Shown: positions 7,303-16,447, numbered from the stretch's first letter. The stretch is 64,000 bases of DNA from a bacterium (GCA_965261595.1 CBDHDG010000007.1:1216001-1280000); one strand, 5' to 3'. Notes: a model not told the origin generated them from the letters alone. Numbers and translations: made by a program.

Positions 7303-8766
7303 CTAACGCTTCACGGTTCCGGGCAGAGCTATTTGTGAACCTTGCCCTTTGCCAACAACGCCCGGCGTATGAAATCGCTTCCCATCGAATATGTCCGAAA
7401 CGCTCAACATCTGCATTCGGGGATACTCCATTCGATTCACGATGAGATCTCCAGCCTGCGCCATATCACGTCTAAAATTCCGTTCTTTCACCGCGCCTAA
7501 AGGCTCCATGGTTATGATACCCGCCATAAGCGCATCGTCATTATCCAATACACCCTTGAGGGCGCGAACATCACTTATGTTGACGTTCTTTCCGCCCTTC
7601 ACCTCAAGGGCCATGCTTTGCAGGTCGGGCTTATCGGGAAGCGGGAAGTAAAGGCGCCCGTCGATTCCACCGTCCGCCGTCCGCTTGGTCGTAACGAAGC
7701 CCTCCACCTCCTCGACGGCCCATTTTTGAAAGTGGTATTTGTCTCGCTCCCAAAGGTCTTTCGCGCCTTCCACGTTGCGAGGCACGCCGTCGATGGTGAA
7801 GTCCTCGCCCTCTACCAAGCCCAGGCGATGCTGTAGGCGCATCCGCGCCACGCGCTTGATGGCGTGAATGGCGATATCGATTCCGATCCACTTACGGCCG
7901 AGGCTATGGGCCGCCTCCATCGTTGTGGCGCATCCACAGAATGGGTCTAGAACCACGTCGCCTTCATTCGAGGAAGCCTTGATGATGCGCTCAAGGAGAG
8001 CGAGAGGCTTCTGGGTTCTGTAGCCGAGGCGTTCTTTTGATGATCCGGCCAGAATCGAAATGTCCCAGACATCACGAAGCGGCATGCCCTTCGTGGGTTC
8101 GTCCACGGGGATTTTTCGCGTTTTCGTTTCCGGATCGAGATACTGCGTTTTCCCCTTGAACCGCTTCAGGTAACTCTCACTGGCAGGTTCATAGGCGACA
8201 TGAAACGTGTTTGTTTTTCCTTTTCCGTAAAACAGAATCACGTCGTGCATGGTCTGAAATCGGGAACTCTTAGAGGGCCATCGCTTGTATGACCAGATAA
8301 TCTCATTCCTGAAATTCCGATGCCCGAAAATACTATCCATCATGATCTTGATGTAGTGGCTGGCCGTGGGGTCGCAATGGAGATAAACGCTCCCCGTGGG
8401 CTTGAGAATAGACTTCATCTGTAGTAATCGCTCAACCATATAGGAGAGGTAGGCGAGAAGGCGCGGTTGTGTGTTTCTCAAGGCGTTCATCCATAGTTTC
8501 CAGAATTGAGTCGTCTCATCGTCAAGGCCTGCCTCGCGCAACATAACGGGCATATGTCTAATGACACGCTGTCGCTCTTCATCAAGTGTCCAGAGGTCGC
8601 AGAACGCCTCTATTTGATCGGGCAAGGGCCGTCCAGTCTCATCCTTGTAAATGGCGTTGTATTCGCGGTTCGAGTTGAAGGGTGGGTCGAGATAAATGAG
8701 GTCTACGCTTCCGGCGCGCATTTCCTGCATGATGGTCAGGCAGTCGCCATAATACAGGCGATTCAT
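7303..8766 (-). CDS. DNA methyltransferase-Mrr-like fusion (identical to 408-1871)
   Basis: Identical 487-aa translation. Confidence 0.88.
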   Translation of the reverse strand: MNRLYYGDCLTIMQEMRAGSVDLIYLDPPFNSNREYNAIYKDETGRPLPDQIEAFCDLWTLDEERQRVIRHMPVMLREAGLDDETTQFWKLWMNALRNTQPRLLAYLSYMVERLLQMKSILKPTGSVYLHCDPTASHYIKIMMDSIFGHRNFRNEIIWSYKRWPSKSSRFQTMHDVILFYGKGKTNTFHVAYEPASESYLKRFKGKTQYLDPETKTRKIPVDEPTKGMPLRDVWDISILAGSSKERLGYRTQKPLALLERIIKASSNEGDVVLDPFCGCATTMEAAHSLGRKWIGIDIAIHAIKRVARMRLQHRLGLVEGEDFTIDGVPRNVEGAKDLWERDKYHFQKWAVEEVEGFVTTKRTADGGIDGRLYFPLPDKPDLQSMALEVKGGKNVNISDVRALKGVLDNDDALMAGIITMEPLGAVKERNFRRDMAQAGDLIVNRMEYPRMQMLSVSDIFDGKRFHTPGVVGKGQGSQIALPGTVKR

Positions 8767-9638
8767 GCCAAGGCCGCCCGCTTGATGAATGCAGAGAACA
8801 AGTCGGGTTGCTTGCGCGTGTTATATTTGAAGCAAGCCTCCTGAATATAGGCGTCAGCGTGCTTGAGGGTGTATTTGTGATGAGAGCCGTACCATGCCCG
8901 CTTCAGAAGGCTCCAGAAACCCTCAATCGTGTTCGTATGCTTGTAGCCTTCGACATACTGGACTTGGTGGTTGATGACCGCATGAGGTATGATTTTTCTG
9001 GCTCGGTTGTAGGCGGGATACTCATCCGTGATGAGCAGGGAACCCGCAGGGTCAACCGCCTTCTGTATGAATTTGAGGATACCCTTTCCGGATACATTAT
9101 TGGCGACCTTCGCCACCACAGAAGCCCCGCGTTCCACCGCGCCGATGACGGGCATTTTGTCCGTTCCGCGTCCGCGCTTGCCCGGCTTGTCATCATCGCG
9201 CTTGTTGCCCTTGCGAGGCTTCCCGCCGATATAACACTCATCCGCCTCTATGATTCCCTGCAATAAGCCGCCATCAAGGGTCATAGCCTTTCGGATTCTC
9301 ATCGCCAGATACCAAGCCGTCTTATGGTTGATTCCTAAATCGCGCCCTAGTTGATGCGAAGATACGCTTTTCTTGGCATTCAGGAGTAAACCAATGGCCA
9401 GAAACCATATCTGCAGGTCGATTTTCGTCTTTTGAAAGATGGTCTTTGAGAGAACATTGAACGAGGACTTGCAGTCATGGCAATTCCACCGGCCTATGCG
9501 ATGTCCGTCCGCCTTCCGTGCAACCTGCATCCCTCCGCAATTCGGGCAATATGGCTCATCGCCAAAGCGGACCTTCTCAAGATGCTCGATGCAGGATTCG
9601 TGGTCTGGGAAGCGTCTGAAAATCTTTACCAAGTCCAT
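8763..9638 (-). CDS. IS1595-family transposase
   Basis: N-terminal CPNC...CHDC zinc ribbon, HTH, EADE, TDE, HTNTIEGFW. Confidence 0.93.
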   Translation of the reverse strand: MDLVKIFRRFPDHESCIEHLEKVRFGDEPYCPNCGGMQVARKADGHRIGRWNCHDCKSSFNVLSKTIFQKTKIDLQIWFLAIGLLLNAKKSVSSHQLGRDLGINHKTAWYLAMRIRKAMTLDGGLLQGIIEADECYIGGKPRKGNKRDDDKPGKRGRGTDKMPVIGAVERGASVVAKVANNVSGKGILKFIQKAVDPAGSLLITDEYPAYNRARKIIPHAVINHQVQYVEGYKHTNTIEGFWSLLKRAWYGSHHKYTLKHADAYIQEACFKYNTRKQPDLFSAFIKRAALA

Positions 9639-11600: not shown

Positions 11601-11850
11601 GTCCGATGCACCGCCGCGTTTGAAAGGAGGTAAGCACGTTACCATCCGAGACCTGCGCGCCATGCAAGGCGTTCTGGACAATGACGAGGCGCTTTTGGCG
11701 GGTTTGATTCGCGATTATACACTTGACCCCTCGACCCACTACATGTAGGAATCCGGCCCTGAATCCTAGACCACAAGATGTAGTGGGGGGACAATATATC
11801 GTGATTCTGCCATTGACCCATATGACCGCAAGCTGTAGTGTCGGGGGATT

Positions 11851-12285
11851 ATGGATCAATCGCCAGGAACTATCAGCTACCTTACGGCATTATTGCGAGA
11901 CGAATTGGTCGTACACGGAATCCGATATCTTATTGTCGGAGGTATCGTCGTGATTGGGGTGCTTCGTTTTGGGCGTGGGTATAAGCGGAGGATTGATAAA
12001 CTGGAGAAAATTCAACTGCGGTCCGAAGCAGGGCCTGACACGAAGGAATCTGCCTCTGCGGACTACATCGAAGCCTGTGGTATTGTGGATGCTTATATTC
12101 ATACCGCACTTCATGCAAAGAGTGACAGTGTGAAATTGATCATAAGAAAGGACTTCATGGAGAGATTTGAAAAGACTACCGGTGCTATTATTGGGCTGGA
12201 TCAGTATAACCGGGAATTGCTGCATCAATGGATGCAATCTAATGCCGCAAGGTTCCTGGTCGGTCATAGGGGAGATATGTCTTAA
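11851..12285 (+). CDS. Hypothetical membrane-anchored protein (cassette 1 cargo)
   Basis: GGGGA RBS; one hydrophobic segment YLIVGGIVVIGVL. Confidence 0.65.
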   Translation: MDQSPGTISYLTALLRDELVVHGIRYLIVGGIVVIGVLRFGRGYKRRIDKLEKIQLRSEAGPDTKESASADYIEACGIVDAYIHTALHAKSDSVKLIIRKDFMERFEKTTGAIIGLDQYNRELLHQWMQSNAARFLVGHRGDMS

Positions 12286-12350
12286 ATCGGGCAAGAAGCC
12301 CGCATGCGTTTGTATTGAATCGCCTACGAAATTGAATTTGAGGGTAGGAA

Positions 12351-13296
12351 ATGTCACCAATAGAAGTCTCTATAACGACGGAGCGACCAGAATTGCCGCA
12401 CGCTGATTTTGCATTTTACATTGATTTACAAGAGAGGCGAAGGGCGGGCCTCTCGTATCTTTTCGGCGACACACGAATTTATCAAGGCATGTGAAAAAAT
12501 AGACCGCGAACTCATCACCTCTATCGATGCCAACATAGAAACAGTGATGATGTTGGAAGATATCGAGGCGAGTTCTTTGAAGACTTGGTTTCGCAATGAA
12601 TTAAGGGCTTTCGATGACCAAGCACTGAAAGAACTTGATTGGAAATCAGCAGTTGGGGAATACCTAGTTCATGCGAAATATATTATATTGCGTTGGATGG
12701 ACCAGGACAGAGACGGGAAAAACATATCGGCTTCGAGTGACCTACCGACTCTTAGACGAGAAATCCAAAAGCTCGCTTCGGAAACTGATGTACGACACAT
12801 TCCCGATTATGGCCCAGTTAATCCGTCTGCGTTAATTCGCGCAATCAAAGATTTTGAGGGTGTCAAGGACCACCTAGTAGAAGGCGATAAGGCATCAATG
12901 GTTTTGCCGAACGAAGAAACGGTGGGTTTTAATTTATCGGTTCGTTTGGACGTAGCAAATATTGAGGCGTTGGCAATCCGAGAAAAGCAGGAGTATTCCG
13001 TTCCATCAATGGTTTTAATTGTCAAGAAACCAGACTACCTTGGTAGCAGTATGTGGGACCTGCGACACGGCAACAAGCCTATCACCGCACGGATTGAACA
13101 TGAAGAATGGCTGCGCGAGTTTCAGAACCGGAGGGTCGATGTTCGCCCCGGCGATGCGTTGCGATGTAAAGTCCGAATAGAAATGAATTATGGCCACGAT
13201 AACGAATTGATTTCAGAGAAGTATTATGTGGAGAACGTGCATGGAGTTCTTGAAAATAAATTCCAACAAGATTCTCTTTTCGATCCAGACGAATAA
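12351..13296 (+). CDS. Hypothetical protein (cassette 1 cargo) with an apparent 1-nt frameshift near 12425
   Basis: ATG 12351 after GAGGGTAGGA reads MSPIEVSITTERPELPHADFAFYID; an extra T separates it from YKRGEG... of the 295-aa ORF 12409-13296. Confidence 0.7.
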
Positions 13297-14694
13297 GGAT
13301 GAGCGGGAATCACGCTACCAATTTGCGATATTGAAGCGGCTCGGTGTTCATAATACACTTGATAAGATCCTACATCTTGTGGTTCTGGCTTTTTGGGCCA
13401 TTTTCCTATATGTAGTGGTCGTCTGCGTCAAGACATAACCTCGGTTTGATTATTATGGACCCTCTGGGGCCAACGAAGGACGGGAATTTTCACAGGGATA
13501 TGGGCGCAGGAGGGGGACCTGGAAGTTGATGGGGTCAAATACAGTCCGGACGCAGATACTGATGGTGGGGAGATACTGGAGGGGAGGAGGACAAAGGGTA
13601 ACCACCTAAAAGCCCATAACTCATAATTCCGATTCTCTTGAGTGAGATGCACTTAACCCGCATTTCCCATATGGATCATAAGTTTTGTCGGACCGAATGC
13701 CATTTTCTCGTGTAAGATCAAGGTGTTGGCCTCTCCCTGCCATCATCTTGCGAGGGGACCCAATGGGTGAAGCGAAGAAGGGGGCTTTGAAGATCCGTTT
13801 TGACCGTCGGCTGAGGCTTGAGTTTCACGGAACCAGAATCACTTCGGATGCAGGATTGCTGGCCTGCCGGGAGCTGGATGATGCGCTGGGTTTGACGGTG
13901 AGAGCGCCAGTGCAATTGCAAGAGATCCGTCATGGCCGGAACATCCAGCATGAGTTGGCGCCGCTATTGCGCCAGTCGGTCTATAGCCGCTTGGCAGGGT
14001 ATGAAGACACCAACGATGCCGAGCGGTTGGCCCAGGACCCCGCGATGCAAGCCGTGGTCGGCCGCCGAGCGCTTGAGAAGCAGGCGGCGGGCGCCAACAC
14101 CCTGAGCCGGTTCGAGACCGAGGTTCTCACCAGGGAGGAAAATCTCAAGGGGCCGGAGCGAGCTGAACCGGGAGTGGGTGGACCGGGCCATGGCACACTC
14201 ACCCCATCAGCGAATCATCCTGGACATGGACAGCTCGGAAAGCCCCGTCCATGGGGAGCAGGAAGGTACGGCCTACAACGGCCACTTTCGTTGCACCTGT
14301 TATCACCCTCTTTTTTGCTTTAACCAGTTCGGGGACTGCGAAGGGGCGATGTTGCGCCCCGGCAACGTGCACAGCGCCGATGGCTGGCGCGAGTTGCTTT
14401 CGCCCATCGCGGCCCGGTATGAGCGGGCGGGTGTTCGCCGTTACTTCCGAGCCGATGCCGCCTTTGCGCGCCCGGAGGTCTATGAGTGCGTGATTATGCC
14501 CTTGACGCAGTAAGACACAAGATATGGTGGTCCCTCGAAAATTGAATCCGACCCACTACATGTGGTATATGGAACTTCAAAGGGTGGAAGCCCCGAGGGA
14601 ACCCCGGGGCGTTGCTACAAGAGAGGACCTCACAGACCCTCCTTGTAGCAAATCCCCAAGCCCGTGTCAACCTCGATTTTCTGGGGGTCTGCCC

Positions 14695-15045
14695 ATGCGT
14701 ACTATCGGCGGTTGCATACTTACAACTGCCCTCATCGCATCTTCCGCCGTCATGGCTGGAGAATCCAACAAGGCCTGTTTTATCGGAAAAGGTGCGGTGT
14801 ACAGCCCCGCTTATGTGGATTTGGAACGAAGAAAACTCATACTTCGCATGTTGGACGATCGCGATTTGGTAGCTTTGTATAAACTTGGATACCGAAACGC
14901 AAAGGAGAAATGGCGTATTTTCATGGTGAGTGAGCATCCAAAAGGATTCCAATACCTGAAGAGCATCCCTGGCTCTACGACTTTCCGTTTTGAAGGGGAA
15001 TTCAAGGTTTTTGAGACGTTGTGCGAGTTCATCTCGTGCAAATAA
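14695..15045 (+). CDS. Hypothetical secreted protein (cassette 2 cargo)
   Basis: MRTIGGCILTTALIASSAVMA signal-peptide-like start within ORF 14524-15045. Confidence 0.6.
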   Translation: MRTIGGCILTTALIASSAVMAGESNKACFIGKGAVYSPAYVDLERRKLILRMLDDRDLVALYKLGYRNAKEKWRIFMVSEHPKGFQYLKSIPGSTTFRFEGEFKVFETLCEFISCK

Positions 15046-15138
15046 GTGGAAAATAAGATTTACAAGTGCAGCGCCAGGGGATCCCGCCCCTGGCGCTGCG
15101 GTTCCATCACCACCCAACCTTGAAGGAGGACTGGGGCA

Positions 15139-15354
15139 ATGGAAGCAAAATGCGAAGGATTTGACGTTTTTGAATGGTTCATCTCCGAAGCAGCCTCTAG
15201 GGTTATTGATCTTCTCTTCTATGCGGGTTTCTACTTGATGGGGATAAGGAATAAGAAACCGCCGAAGAAACGCATCCCACTCGAAATTCGGGGCTCTTAC
15301 GTCGGGCCACCAGCCATCATCAATGGGAGGATATGTGGTTCCACGGGTCCCTAA
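15139..15354 (+). CDS. Small hypothetical protein (cassette 2 cargo)
   Basis: AGGAGG RBS upstream of ATG; 71 aa with a hydrophobic stretch. Confidence 0.45.
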   Translation: MEAKCEGFDVFEWFISEAASRVIDLLFYAGFYLMGIRNKKPPKKRIPLEIRGSYVGPPAIINGRICGSTGP

Positions 15355-16447
15355 AAGTGACCCCCTCCTGTTGGATAACCACAACATGTAGTGTCTCAAA
15401 ATCGCACCTATATCTTGTGTCTTACTGCGTCAAAGGCATAATCACGTATGAGTGCCTGGAAGCGCACAGCTTCCTTTACGCCATCCGCCTTCCCGCCAAC
15501 GACGTGGTGCAGCGAGAGATCGACTTCCTCCTCACCCGCCCGGTCGGTCGCCCGCCCAAGAGACCCATCATCTTCTATTACGACTTCCGGTATCAGGCTG
15601 GAAGCTGGGACCGTTCCCGGCGGGTCGTGGCGAAGGTGGAATGGCACTCAGGCGAACTCTTCCCTCGCGTCGGATTCATTGTCACGAACCTGACGGCTCG
15701 ACCCGAGGGGGTCGTGCACTTCTACAACCAGCGAGGCACAGCCGAGCAATGGATCAAGGAAGGCAAGTACGCCCTGAACTGGACACGCCTTTCCTGTCAC
15801 CGGTTCGTGTGCAACCAGGTGCGGCTCCTTCTCTTCGTCCTGGCGTACAACCTGGGCAATTTCCTGCGCAGGCTAGCCTTGCCCAGGGGGCTCAAGCACT
15901 GGTCGCTGCGAAGCCTCCAGGTCAAGCTCATCAAAATGGGCGGGAGGATTGTGCGGCACGCCCGGCAGATCATCTTTCAATTGGCCGAAGTAGCGGTATC
16001 CAGGGAAGAGTTCGCCATCATCCTGGACCGAATCAACCGATTACGGCCGGTGCCGGTCTAACCTTGTGCAGAGGGTTCCCGGCAGCATGAGGTGATTGGT
16101 TAACGGGTTGAACCGCGAACAAAGGGGACCGAAGGGCGAGGGTCCGCCTTTTGGGGCAGTCGATGGCCGTCAGCACCTTGTTGCGGAGGGTTGGAAGGCT
16201 CTTGACAAACCCATCGGAAGGGGATCAACTGGTTTTCATCGGGAAAGGGGACCGGAAACCACCCAAGCAAGTTGATATGGGAAATTCCGGGTACACCCAA
16301 TGTGGATGGACATTCTTCGCCCGCCCGTCGGGTGAGCATGTTAACTTTGTTTTCCCGAATGTGAGGAGAAAAGCCGCATCGCACGGGACGGCCTTCGACG
16401 TCTCCGCGGGCGATTGGCCTCATGCGCAACCGAGAGGGGAGGGAACG

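Follow-up and report, generated by a model that had tools for sequence, protein, structure and literature searches.

The window analysed here, a stretch of bacterial DNA of 64,000 nt, holds two neighbouring cassettes, each end of which carries two 16-bp palindromes that resemble the operator boxes of NrdR, the cell's sensor of DNA building blocks. The first-pass annotation of this DNA proposed that the mobility or cargo expression of a whole cassette family is wired to this sensor, and named subterminal transposase sites as the alternative. We asked what these elements are, and which protein is likely to read their boxes.

Two gene-carrying cassettes without a transposase

Both elements are non-autonomous mobile insertion cassettes of an IS1595-family lineage that carry genes but no transposase; the lineage looks ISNwi1-like, of the kind "with passenger genes". 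The cassettes, their flanks and their cargo are laid out as follows (strand given where assigned):

11702..11709: left copy of the 8-bp target duplication of cassette 1 (identical 8-mer at 13444-13451)
11710..13443: cassette 1, a 1734-bp transposase-less mobile insertion cassette of IS1595 type
11800..11843, + strand: internal old-end unit with tip-like sequence, TTGAC, degenerate third box and -10-like hexamer (weak profile hit at C7:1227800)
11851..12285, + strand: cargo ORF, 144 aa, no family match
12409..13296, + strand: cargo ORF, 295 aa as read in the window, C-terminal part matching PDC-S42 (PADLOC, E = 2.8e-8)
13685..14488, + strand: 5' part of an interrupted IS4/IS1380-like (DDE_Tnp_1_4) transposase gene, split by cassette 2
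14481-14488 and 15447-15454: perfect 8-bp target duplication of cassette 2, both copies identical
14489..15446: cassette 2, 958 bp, transposase-less
14695..15045, + strand: cargo ORF, 116 aa, hydrophobic N-terminus, no family match
15139..15354, + strand: cargo ORF, 71 aa, no family match
15447..16061, + strand: 3' part of the interrupted IS4/IS1380-like transposase gene (from ORF reading, empty-site contigs and an uninterrupted copy)

Because perfect 8-bp target duplications flank both cassettes, their true ends could be fixed. An ORF and Pfam scan found neither a transposase ORF nor a transposase family match within 11710-13443 or 14489-15446, and since their own transposase is absent we file both as non-autonomous derivatives. 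IS ends, passenger genes, the lack of a transposase and evidence of movement, which together define a mobile insertion cassette, were all found. The ends of cassette 1 fit the end profile drawn genome-wide, and its GC content is 0.45-0.50, compared with about 0.63 for the genome. Cassette 2 has inverted repeats of 37 nt with 97% identity.

The "cassette family" of the first-pass annotation is an IS1595-family set of transposase-less cassettes. About 30 paired elements are present genome-wide, among them eight full 958-bp copies (cassette 2 is one) and three 1315-bp variants. Perfect 8-bp duplications flank 21 of the 30, and several elements that lack one show swapped halves, which fits recombination between copies. 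This genome has 55 places with the two-box end structure and one relative has four, against no match to a reversed control pattern. Most copies are near-identical: four groups among the 38 distinct ends hold 11, 11, 11 and 10 identical copies.

Movement can be followed at the sites themselves. Cassette 1 is present or absent at its own site within natural populations: three runs, from different studies, yielded contigs in which 11700 is followed directly by 13443, a skip of 1742 nt (1734 + 8), with depths of 21.6, 30.2 and 8.5 for the empty site against 13, 6.3 and 4.9 for the filled site. For cassette 2, contigs of four runs join 14480 to 15447 and skip 966 nt. The IS that it interrupts has an uninterrupted copy elsewhere (L003), which matches PF13701 at 2.2e-96.

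Some of the passengers have a defence flavour. The 295-aa cargo ORF of cassette 1 likely starts at an ATG at 12352, which this assembly places in a different frame; one base at 12428 is missing from the contigs of three other runs. The passenger of an autonomous copy matches the same PDC-S42 model far more strongly (PADLOC, 1.1e-40), and across the genome this element type carries a PDC-S42-like candidate, a GmrSD-like nuclease and a methylase-nuclease fusion. Upstream of the first cargo ORF, the internal old-end unit stops 8 nt before the ATG at 11851, and an analogous internal unit precedes the ORF of a 908-bp cassette type, again downstream of the boxes.

Autonomous partners and the terminal promoter

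Autonomous copies elsewhere in the genome encode 295-aa Zn-ribbon/DDE transposases and share their tips with the cassettes. Three transposases of 295 or 296 aa match PF12762 (DDE_Tnp_IS1595; 1e-35 to 1e-37) and PF12760 (Zn_ribbon_IS1595; 1e-9 to 1e-12), and the cassette 2 tips agree with the tips of an autonomous copy (C7:637984-639734) over the whole of their first 18 nt. Judging by these shared tips, the cassettes are presumably moved in trans by the 295-aa transposases. Duplications of 8 bp, an N-terminal zinc finger and a DDE domain are all described for the IS1595 family in one study (PMC8101967). The best plasmid relatives of the transposase are less than 40% identical to it. The ISNwi1 group has the end consensus ggnnatTAT.

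Each autonomous end is a compact unit, in which a 13-nt tip is followed by TTGAC(A) as a -35 element, a 17-nt spacer that terminates in the conserved motif CCACAAGATG, a -10 hexamer and, a few bases on, a start codon. By its sequence, TTGAC is the -35 element of an inward terminal promoter. This promoter appears intact in the autonomous copies, whereas that of the cassettes looks degenerate, with a -10 that lacks its last T. The only two promoter-like sites within 2 kb of one autonomous copy are the terminal, inward-facing ones, with 11/12 and 10/12 matches. The arrangement extends to alphaproteobacterial relatives: TTGAC lies 5' of the transposase start in 65 of the 75 parsed, followed about 17 nt on by a TAG-type -10, a Shine-Dalgarno sequence and ATG, as judged by eye from the listing.

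Paired boxes and the protein that may read them

The boxes and the inward -35-like elements beside them are listed below; scores are in bits under a matrix trained only on 26 nrd-promoter boxes, and the TTGAC entries come from sequence reading.

11723..11727, + strand: inward TTGAC (-35-like), left end of cassette 1
11736..11751, + strand: outer box, cassette 1 left, 14.3 bits
11771..11786, + strand: inner box, cassette 1 left, 35 nt from the outer box, 19.4 bits
13367..13382, - strand: inner box, cassette 1 right, 16.4 bits
13403..13418, - strand: outer box, cassette 1 right, 36 nt from the inner box, 16.4 bits
13427..13431, - strand: inward TTGAC, right end of cassette 1
14515..14530, + strand: outer box, cassette 2 left, 19.8 bits
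14553..14568, + strand: inner box, cassette 2 left, 38 nt from the outer box, 14.7 bits
15379..15394, - strand: inner box, cassette 2 right, 19.0 bits
15405..15420, - strand: outer box, cassette 2 right, 26 nt from the inner box, 16.6 bits

The geometry first reported for these ends holds throughout. All eight 16-mers, two per end, stand at the starts listed; the outer box, described as 25-26 bp from the terminus, begins 26 nt from the duplication-fixed tip at all four ends, with the inward TTGAC just outside it at tip positions 14-18; the start-to-start spacings are 35, 36, 38 and 26; and cargo and inter-box spacers differ between the two cassettes. The outer box is made up of the conserved inner part of the terminal inverted repeat and the first -10 bases, and the inner box repeats the same motif once more, in direct orientation. 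A third, weaker box (11826-11841) lies inside the internal end-like unit of cassette 1.

As NrdR boxes, these sites are of high quality. They score 14.3-19.8 bits, compared with 12.0-21.4 for the nrd training sites, which is far above background and within the range of genuine sites, and C4, A6, A8, T9, T11 and G13 are present in all eight; these six positions are reported as highly conserved in NrdR boxes (PMC13584703). A stricter core pattern has 10 matches on both strands, at six places, in the 64-kb window, compared with 1.65 +/- 1.56 in shuffles (maximum 6; 0/100 reached 10). The left boxes of cassette 2 escape that pattern, having G at position 12, and are caught by looser ones. Genome hits of the nrd-only matrix fall largely in element ends (72/88 at >=16 bits; 85/139 at >=14 bits). 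The host has the sensor itself: one complete nrdR gene, encoding Zn_ribbon_NrdR and ATP-cone domains.

Nonetheless, the reading that fits best is that the boxes are subterminal transposase sites, the alternative of the first-pass annotation, and we favour it with moderate confidence. We propose that the boxes are putative cis-acting sites for the element's own transposase, which would serve end recognition and transpososome assembly; in autonomous copies, they might additionally serve self-repression of the terminal promoter. Both boxes of each end point the same way relative to the tip, and the tip-side flank CCA is nearly invariant while the opposite flank is free. We compared 21 distinct two-box ends, three of them from another genus (G003), locating the outer box by fixed offset so that the matrix could introduce no bias. 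Conservation of the outer box was C4 21/21, A6 17, A8 18, T9 18, T11 18 and G13 17. The inter-box spacers cannot be aligned across these ends, yet 13 bases of the inner box are almost invariant and a spacing of 35-36 is kept in 17 of the 21; a retained inner box and spacing amid diverged spacers is a signature of selection in cis.

Some observations count against transposase sites. Taken one by one, the boxes match NrdR boxes excellently. The bases that are kept are two-fold symmetric, a pattern seen more typically with dimeric regulators than with transposases. In addition, the equivalent spacer is variable in the alphaproteobacterial clade, so the box is not a universal need of the family. 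In favour of transposase sites, the motif is an intrinsic feature of such ends: among the 75 single-box ends from this clade, 26 have a box of at least 10 bits within the scanned stretch, 23 of these at offsets 25-27, and 10 have the full six-base core, compared with 0.46 in shuffles; no second box was found in the 26.

A doubtful but substantial possibility is that the host NrdR has been co-opted, binding the paired boxes and so coupling the end promoter, transposition or both to dNTP/ATP, or bending DNA as a host factor. Apart from the complete nrdR gene, the six critical bases and scores like those of genuine sites, this is consistent with the placement of two boxes right after TTGAC, an arrangement shared with the host nrdJ promoter and with 95 operator-like matches from metagenome and viral contigs, and with the pattern of kept and free positions, which is that of NrdR: positions 5, 7 and 10 of the outer box vary, and these are the ones NrdR does not read. 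NrdRs bind heterologous boxes, flanks being of little weight (PMC13584703). At every box, NrdR introduces a kink of about 90 degrees into the DNA (PMC9110341), a property that could fit an architectural role.

Spacing is the main obstacle, and the first-pass annotation's own caveat about it proved serious. As described in two studies, NrdR requires two boxes with spacers of 14-18 or 24-27 bp, and spacers of 18-24 bp are derepressed in vivo (PMC12051234, PMC13584703). The spacers of the window pairs, 19, 20, 22 and 10 bp, lie outside the operator range (15-16 bp; tolerated 14-18 or 24-27) and in the poor-binding, derepressed range: with off-phase spacers, binding by the four NrdRs tested there is 10- to 300-fold weaker, and repression of E. 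coli reporters is relieved (PMC12051234). Off-phase pairs do retain some binding and repression according to the same source, in which the Listeria NrdR still bound a 19-bp spacer at 51 nM and some repression was left in E. coli reporters at every spacer length (PMC12051234). The 56 element pairs of this genome have start-to-start spacings of 35 (30 pairs), 36 (3), 26 (11), 38 (11) and 18 (1), and 0/56 have the 31-32 of the host's candidate operators: nine of 18 non-element pairs have it, with neighbours that include nrdJ, dcd, mazG, vsr-dcm and a glycosylase. Of 95 matches to this pattern in viral and metagenome contigs, 66 have a spacing of 31-33 and none has one of 35, 36, 38 or 26.

Other features of the ends also argue against NrdR. 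The 35-36 spacing kept across diverged ends suggests a protein of another geometry; the boxes repeat directly and are oriented relative to the terminus, with a single invariant flank; and distant relatives carry a lone box at the corresponding offset, to which NrdR could not bind. Nor does the surrounding context resemble that of a repressed promoter of ribonucleotide reductase (RNR) or nucleotide metabolism: the -10 at cassette ends is incomplete, the cargo is a defence candidate or has no family match, and the boxes of cassette 1 are badly placed to repress it, being upstream of the internal promoter-like unit that precedes the ORF. Canonical NrdR repression is unlikely, because the two boxes of a pair lack the helical phasing that an NrdR tetramer requires. 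None of the titles listed by a literature search concerned a tie of NrdR or its box to a transposase or insertion sequence. By the refuting conditions set in the first-pass annotation, the wiring first proposed is not refuted, given the host gene and the high scores, and it is partly supported. A more elaborate version, which we regard as a doubtful possibility, is that the transposon family copied the host NrdR box into both ends, and that NrdR, its nucleotide load set by the dNTP/ATP state, binds these copies with low affinity or in some atypical arrangement, for instance by linking ends or by competing with the transposase. This could gate transposition or end transcription to dNTP demand during replication or phage attack; alternatively, the elements could act as a sponge that shifts the RNR set-point.

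It is improbable that the boxes have no present function, the outer box being a remnant of promoter and inverted repeat, the inner box a duplication carried along, and their sameness a result of recent common descent. Most copies are indeed near-identical recent amplifications, cassette end promoters look degenerate, and one end type with a 1-nt deletion in the outer box persists at three or more loci; the retention of inner box and spacing in 21 ends whose spacers have diverged beyond alignment speaks against it. Least probable, and by our estimate very improbable, is a shared reading head, in which the N-terminal zinc ribbon of the transposase, as a relative of that of NrdR, reads the same type of box with NrdR uninvolved: both ribbons are N-terminal DNA-binding domains and profile comparison aligns them (75% probability, 31 columns), but the Cys-x2-Cys scaffold carries the alignment, the solved-structure profile search returned generic zinc ribbons of RNA polymerase and ribosomal proteins (NrdR in 0/28 hits, E up to 10), and D15, R17 and the RRRR motif, described as NrdR specificity determinants in PMC9110341, are present in the host NrdR and absent from the transposases.

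Significance and comparison with known systems

Anti-phage-flavoured passengers on mobile cassettes offer a concrete route for shuffling small defence genes. The layout of the ends, with a tip, a built-in -35, a box that covers the -10 and a further box in the cassettes, is also relevant to where the limits of similar ends are drawn elsewhere. The genome is also a natural set of more than 100 near-perfect NrdR-like boxes, all avoiding the permitted spacing. If NrdR ignores them, this would confirm in vivo how strict the phase rule is; if NrdR binds them, this would be the first link between a dNTP sensor and transposition that we have found, in a literature judged mainly by titles.

Paired boxes make NrdR operators an obvious comparison. 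In the published accounts (PMC9110341, PMC12051234, PMC13584703), these share with the cassette ends six-base 16-bp boxes, two per site, adjoining or overlapping a -35, in a host with nrdR. They differ in spacer length (15-16, or 24-27, bp, compared with 19, 20, 22 and 10 bp), and the cassette boxes are direct repeats with one fixed flank, at transposon tips, with no nucleotide-metabolism gene downstream.

The closest relatives by family are the ISNwi1-type elements, a group with passenger genes within IS1595 that was reportedly described by Siguier, Gagnevin and Chandler in 2009 (cited in PMC8101967). They share Zn-ribbon and DDE_Tnp_IS1595 domains (in the autonomous partners), 8-bp duplications, inverted repeats and passenger genes beside the transposase; unlike them, the window cassettes have no transposase. 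No second, directly repeated subterminal box was seen in the autonomous IS1595 relatives examined, whereas the cassettes have one per end.

As a class, mobile insertion cassettes (MICs) are known from examples such as MIC231, an IS4/IS231 derivative of the Bacillus cereus group. Like these, the window cassettes have IS-type inverted repeats around passenger genes, no transposase, target duplications, multiple copies and, presumably, movement in trans; they differ in belonging to IS1595 rather than to IS4/IS231, and in having a two-box module that lies outside an older unit of end and promoter. Tn7 and Mu have several sites for their transposases near each end. These too have repeated, terminus-oriented sites with unequal spacing at the two ends, as in cassette 2 (26 and 38), although their transposases belong to other families and the cassettes show just two putative sites per end.

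Two mobile cassettes and the boxes at their ends

The true ends of the two cassettes in the window are fixed by perfect 8-bp direct repeats:

11710-13443, cassette 1, 1734 bp
14489-15446, cassette 2, 958 bp

Since neither contains a transposase gene, we describe both as mobile insertion cassettes of the IS1595 family. Cassette 2 has a 37-nt inverted repeat (97%) and sits within an IS4/IS1380-like transposase gene; the inverted repeat of cassette 1 is looser. What the first-pass annotation had noticed at these ends is real. Read directly from the sequence, all eight of its NrdR-box-like 16-mers, an outer and an inner box at each end, lie exactly where it had placed them, start-to-start spacings are 35, 36, 38 and 26 bp as it had reported, and an inward-facing TTGAC occupies tip positions 14-18, with the outer box running from position 27. 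The six positions listed as highly conserved in NrdR boxes in the available part of PMC13584703 (C4, A6, A8, T9, T11 and G13) are present in all eight. A stricter core pattern matched the window 10 times, counting both strands, at six places; shuffled versions of the window gave 1.65 +/- 1.56 matches, and none of 100 shuffles reached 10.

The case for the cassette 1 insertion being polymorphic in nature is good, though short of perfect. Contigs of three sequencing runs from different studies connect 11700 directly to 13443, skipping 1742 bp, which is the cassette plus one 8-mer. Depths in the three runs were 21.6, 30.2 and 8.5 at the empty site, 13, 6.3 and 4.9 within the cassette, and 37, 35 and 19 in the flanks. 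The reservation is that the joints have short sides, of 21-30 nt. For cassette 2, 14480 is connected to 15447 in four runs, including an RNA library, with a skip of 966 bp, which shows that copies of its host IS exist without it. The RNA contigs of run X15 cover neither cassette and carry no information on expression. Compared with the window, contigs from other runs are one base short at 12428 and again at 14153-14155. Without the base at 12428, the ATG at 12352 would be read in the same frame as the PDC-S42-like ORF, so the window copy is either frameshifted or has a consensus error at 12428.

For that ORF, the 295-aa cargo of cassette 1, the PADLOC match is to the candidate PDC-S42 (2.8e-8), a model that the passenger of one autonomous copy hits at 1.1e-40. 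A larger cassette encodes a DUF262/GmrSD-N plus HNH protein, and another a methylase-Mrr fusion interrupted by an IS3. No family matches were obtained for the cassette 2 cargo or for the 144-aa ORF.

An IS1595 family with a probable terminal promoter

The host genome (6.17 Mb in seven contigs, C1-C7) contains many such elements; the window corresponds to C7:1216001-1280000. A search with an end profile gave 83 matches, which resolved into 30 paired elements and 12 unpaired ends; 21 of the 30 have perfect 8-bp duplications. A 908-bp cassette is present in 11 paired copies, the 958-bp type of cassette 2 in 8 full copies plus three 1315-bp variants, and several larger elements occur singly. Judged by the target duplications, the TTGAC of this family is internal to the element, 13 nt in from the tip. 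For the strict two-box pattern, 55 occurrences were counted in the host genome and four in a genome from a different genus of the same family, with none in the remaining 49 genomes of the phylum; a reversed control pattern was absent from every genome scanned.

Three autonomous kinds share the cassettes' tips, at C5:10860-12674 (with two more copies), C6:703409-705509 and C7:637984-639734, and these tips probably match the ISNwi1-group consensus. In each kind, one passenger gene accompanies the gene for a 295/296-aa protein that has both a DDE_Tnp_IS1595 and a Zn_ribbon_IS1595 domain. According to the accessible text of PMC8101967 (citing Siguier et al., 2009), members of the IS1595 family are characterised by 8-bp duplications and by a single transposase gene, whose product has a zinc finger at its N-terminus and a DDE domain. 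Beyond these genomes, a plasmid collection contained 490 records with relatives of the 295-aa transposase, all below 60% identity (the best at 39%), and so offered no close ends for comparison. Pattern scans of metagenome and viral contigs (95 of 96 loci parsed, with L211 left out; near-identical records may be uncounted) found no further two-box transposon ends.

Several observations concern neighbouring or nested elements. Another clade of IS1595-family transposases, with 36% identity to the 295-aa type, is represented by genes at 8763-9638 (minus strand), 2 kb before cassette 1, and at the start of the window; the genome has 21 matches to the IS1595-type transposase family. Some 908-bp copies (C6:1667271 and C7:905605; C7:8746, C7:29393 and C3:129361) have swapped halves of their 8-bp target duplications, a pattern left either by inversions or translocations through recombination between copies or by joins made at repeats during assembly. 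A 339-aa transposase in the 4.1-kb two-box element C6:352755-356887 was considered as the cognate enzyme and rejected, since it belongs to a distinct IS that is nested there and bounded by ends of its own. This IS (L001:3187-4190; C6:355741-356744) is a complete alphaproteobacterial-type IS1595-family IS inside a cassette of an unrelated phylum. A Paracoccaceae MAG encodes a transposase with 89% identity to that of the nested IS, which points to recent cross-phylum transfer. Because the 339-aa protein belongs to the nested IS, a scan of genome contigs with it returned mostly the alphaproteobacterial clade, which we kept as an outgroup.

The ends of the autonomous copies resemble promoters, reading 13-nt tip, TTGACA, 17-nt spacer, -10 hexamer, about 7 nt and ATG. 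Over 2 kb, the copy at C7:637984 shows promoter-like sites at two places only, both terminal and inward-facing (11/12 and 10/12 matches). In the outgroup, 65 of 75 loci (of 80; the other five were left out because the match started at the locus edge) have TTGAC no more than 160 nt before the transposase start, typically followed, as judged by eye and uncounted, by about 17 nt, a TAG-type -10, a Shine-Dalgarno sequence and the start codon. Within the 295-aa clade the spacer terminates in a conserved CCACAAGATG, and the outer box is this CCACAAGATG plus the first bases of the -10. The two-box cassettes have lost the last T of the -10, and their ends were not flagged by a consensus promoter scan. 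Cassette 1 (at 11800-11843) and the 908-bp type both have an older, internal end-plus-promoter unit ahead of the cargo ORF, downstream of the boxes.

Likeness to NrdR operators

The first-pass annotation had proposed that the cassettes are wired to the host regulator NrdR. The regulator is indeed present, as a single gene with Zn_ribbon_NrdR and ATP-cone domains. The only ribonucleotide reductase detected in the genome, which is 96.7% complete, is a 933-aa nrdJ-like gene, and NrdD was not found in it. The nrdJ promoter has TTGACA, box 1 immediately after it and box 2 31 nt later, and the best pairs upstream of nrdJ are likewise 31 or 32 nt apart in five out of six relatives from the order; G004, the sixth, offers no more than a weaker candidate at 42 nt, outside the pairing rule. 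A symmetric matrix built from 26 distinct nrd-promoter boxes of the phylum, none from elements, scored its training sites at 12.0-21.4 bits and the eight window boxes at 14.3-19.8 bits, above background, so the proposal survives this comparison. Genome-wide, 72 of 88 positions scoring at least 16 bits, and 85 of 139 scoring at least 14 bits, fall within the first 100 nt of element ends.

NrdR-like pairs at the canonical 31-32 bp also occur at C6:1638040 (dcd), C6:1740928 (mazG), C1:205130 (vsr and a C5 methylase), C7:799300 (HhH-GPD glycosylase), C2:98756 and C6:1127359. Their position beside nucleotide- and DNA-metabolism genes suggests that the NrdR regulon of this organism has widened beyond the reductase. 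A strong pair 31 bp apart (C7:790278-790324, L003:279-325; 17.3 and 17.8 bits) is followed by TTGACA, roughly 400 bp in which neither a clear gene nor an Rfam family is evident, and a 2.6-kb two-box element, whose insertion may have severed the original target gene. A riboswitch leader in this interval was considered and dropped, Rfam having given no family.

What binds the element ends

We think it rather unlikely that NrdR takes part at the element ends; wiring of the cassettes to it is unproven, and disfavoured by geometry. In its favour, the outer box, placed by a fixed offset free of matrix bias, keeps exactly the six positions that NrdR reads in 17-21 of 21 distinct two-box ends, while positions 5, 7 and 10 vary, a symmetric pattern that suits a dimeric regulator. 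The equivalent spacer is free in the alphaproteobacterial clade, so the box is no general need of the family. By contrast, the pairs at element ends (n=56, both boxes at least 9 bits) are spaced at 35 (30), 36 (3), 26 (11), 38 (11) and 18 (1), whereas 9 of 18 non-element pairs, which adjoin nrdJ, dcd, mazG, vsr-dcm, the HhH-GPD glycosylase gene and others, stand at 31-32, and TTGAC-box-box arrangements in metagenome and viral contigs are at 31-33 in 66 of 95 cases and never at 35, 36, 38 or 26. Spacers between element boxes are 19, 20, 22 and 10 bp. In the excerpts available from PMC12051234, four NrdRs bind well only with spacers of 14-18 or 24-27 bp, a 19-bp spacer costs from 50-fold (Listeria) to more than 200-fold (pneumococcus), and Escherichia coli reporters are derepressed at 18-24 bp, although weak binding and partial repression remain for off-phase pairs. 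A single box is not bound by NrdR, according to the part of PMC13584703 at hand, whereas heterologous boxes are bound by the NrdRs of E. coli and S. coelicolor.

Spacing of 35-36 is kept in 17 of the 21 distinct ends although the spacers are otherwise unalignable, which argues that some protein geometry, other than that of NrdR, is under selection there. Moreover, the two boxes of an end share their orientation relative to the tip, and the tip-side flank is almost invariant while the opposite flank is free. Flanks carry little weight for NrdR and are not among its critical positions in what is accessible of PMC13584703, so we dropped the missing GTG flank as an argument against it. In alphaproteobacterial ends, a lone box of at least 10 bits occurs in the scanned stretch of 26 of 75, at offsets 25-27 in 23 of them; the full six-base core is found in 10 of 75, where 200 shuffles gave at most 2 and an expectation of 0.46. 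A second box at 17-49 nt is absent from all 26 (best second score, 4.3 bits). These lone boxes show the box-like motif to be a recurrent property of such ends in a setting where NrdR could not act. Our preferred reading is that the boxes are subterminal transposase sites.

Common ancestry of the transposase and NrdR zinc ribbons is weakly indicated at best: their profiles align at 75% probability, but the alignment is confined to the cysteine scaffold and has no support beyond it, the NrdR residues D15, R17 and RRRR (as given in the portion of PMC9110341 available) are missing from the transposases, and NrdR is not among the 28 weak matches of a PDB search.

Box arrays of two further kinds occur on metagenome and viral contigs (L147, L155, L161, L224 and relatives; L171 and L205), one with TTGAC and NrdR-like boxes at a 34-bp period and the other a 42-bp tandem repeat bearing an NrdR-like box; these are not transposon ends of the two-box type. 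A limited literature search on NrdR and transposons found no description of the two-box subterminal module or of its box-by-box identity with the NrdR box. The elements themselves are of already known kinds, namely IS1595 elements with passenger genes and transposase-less cassettes.
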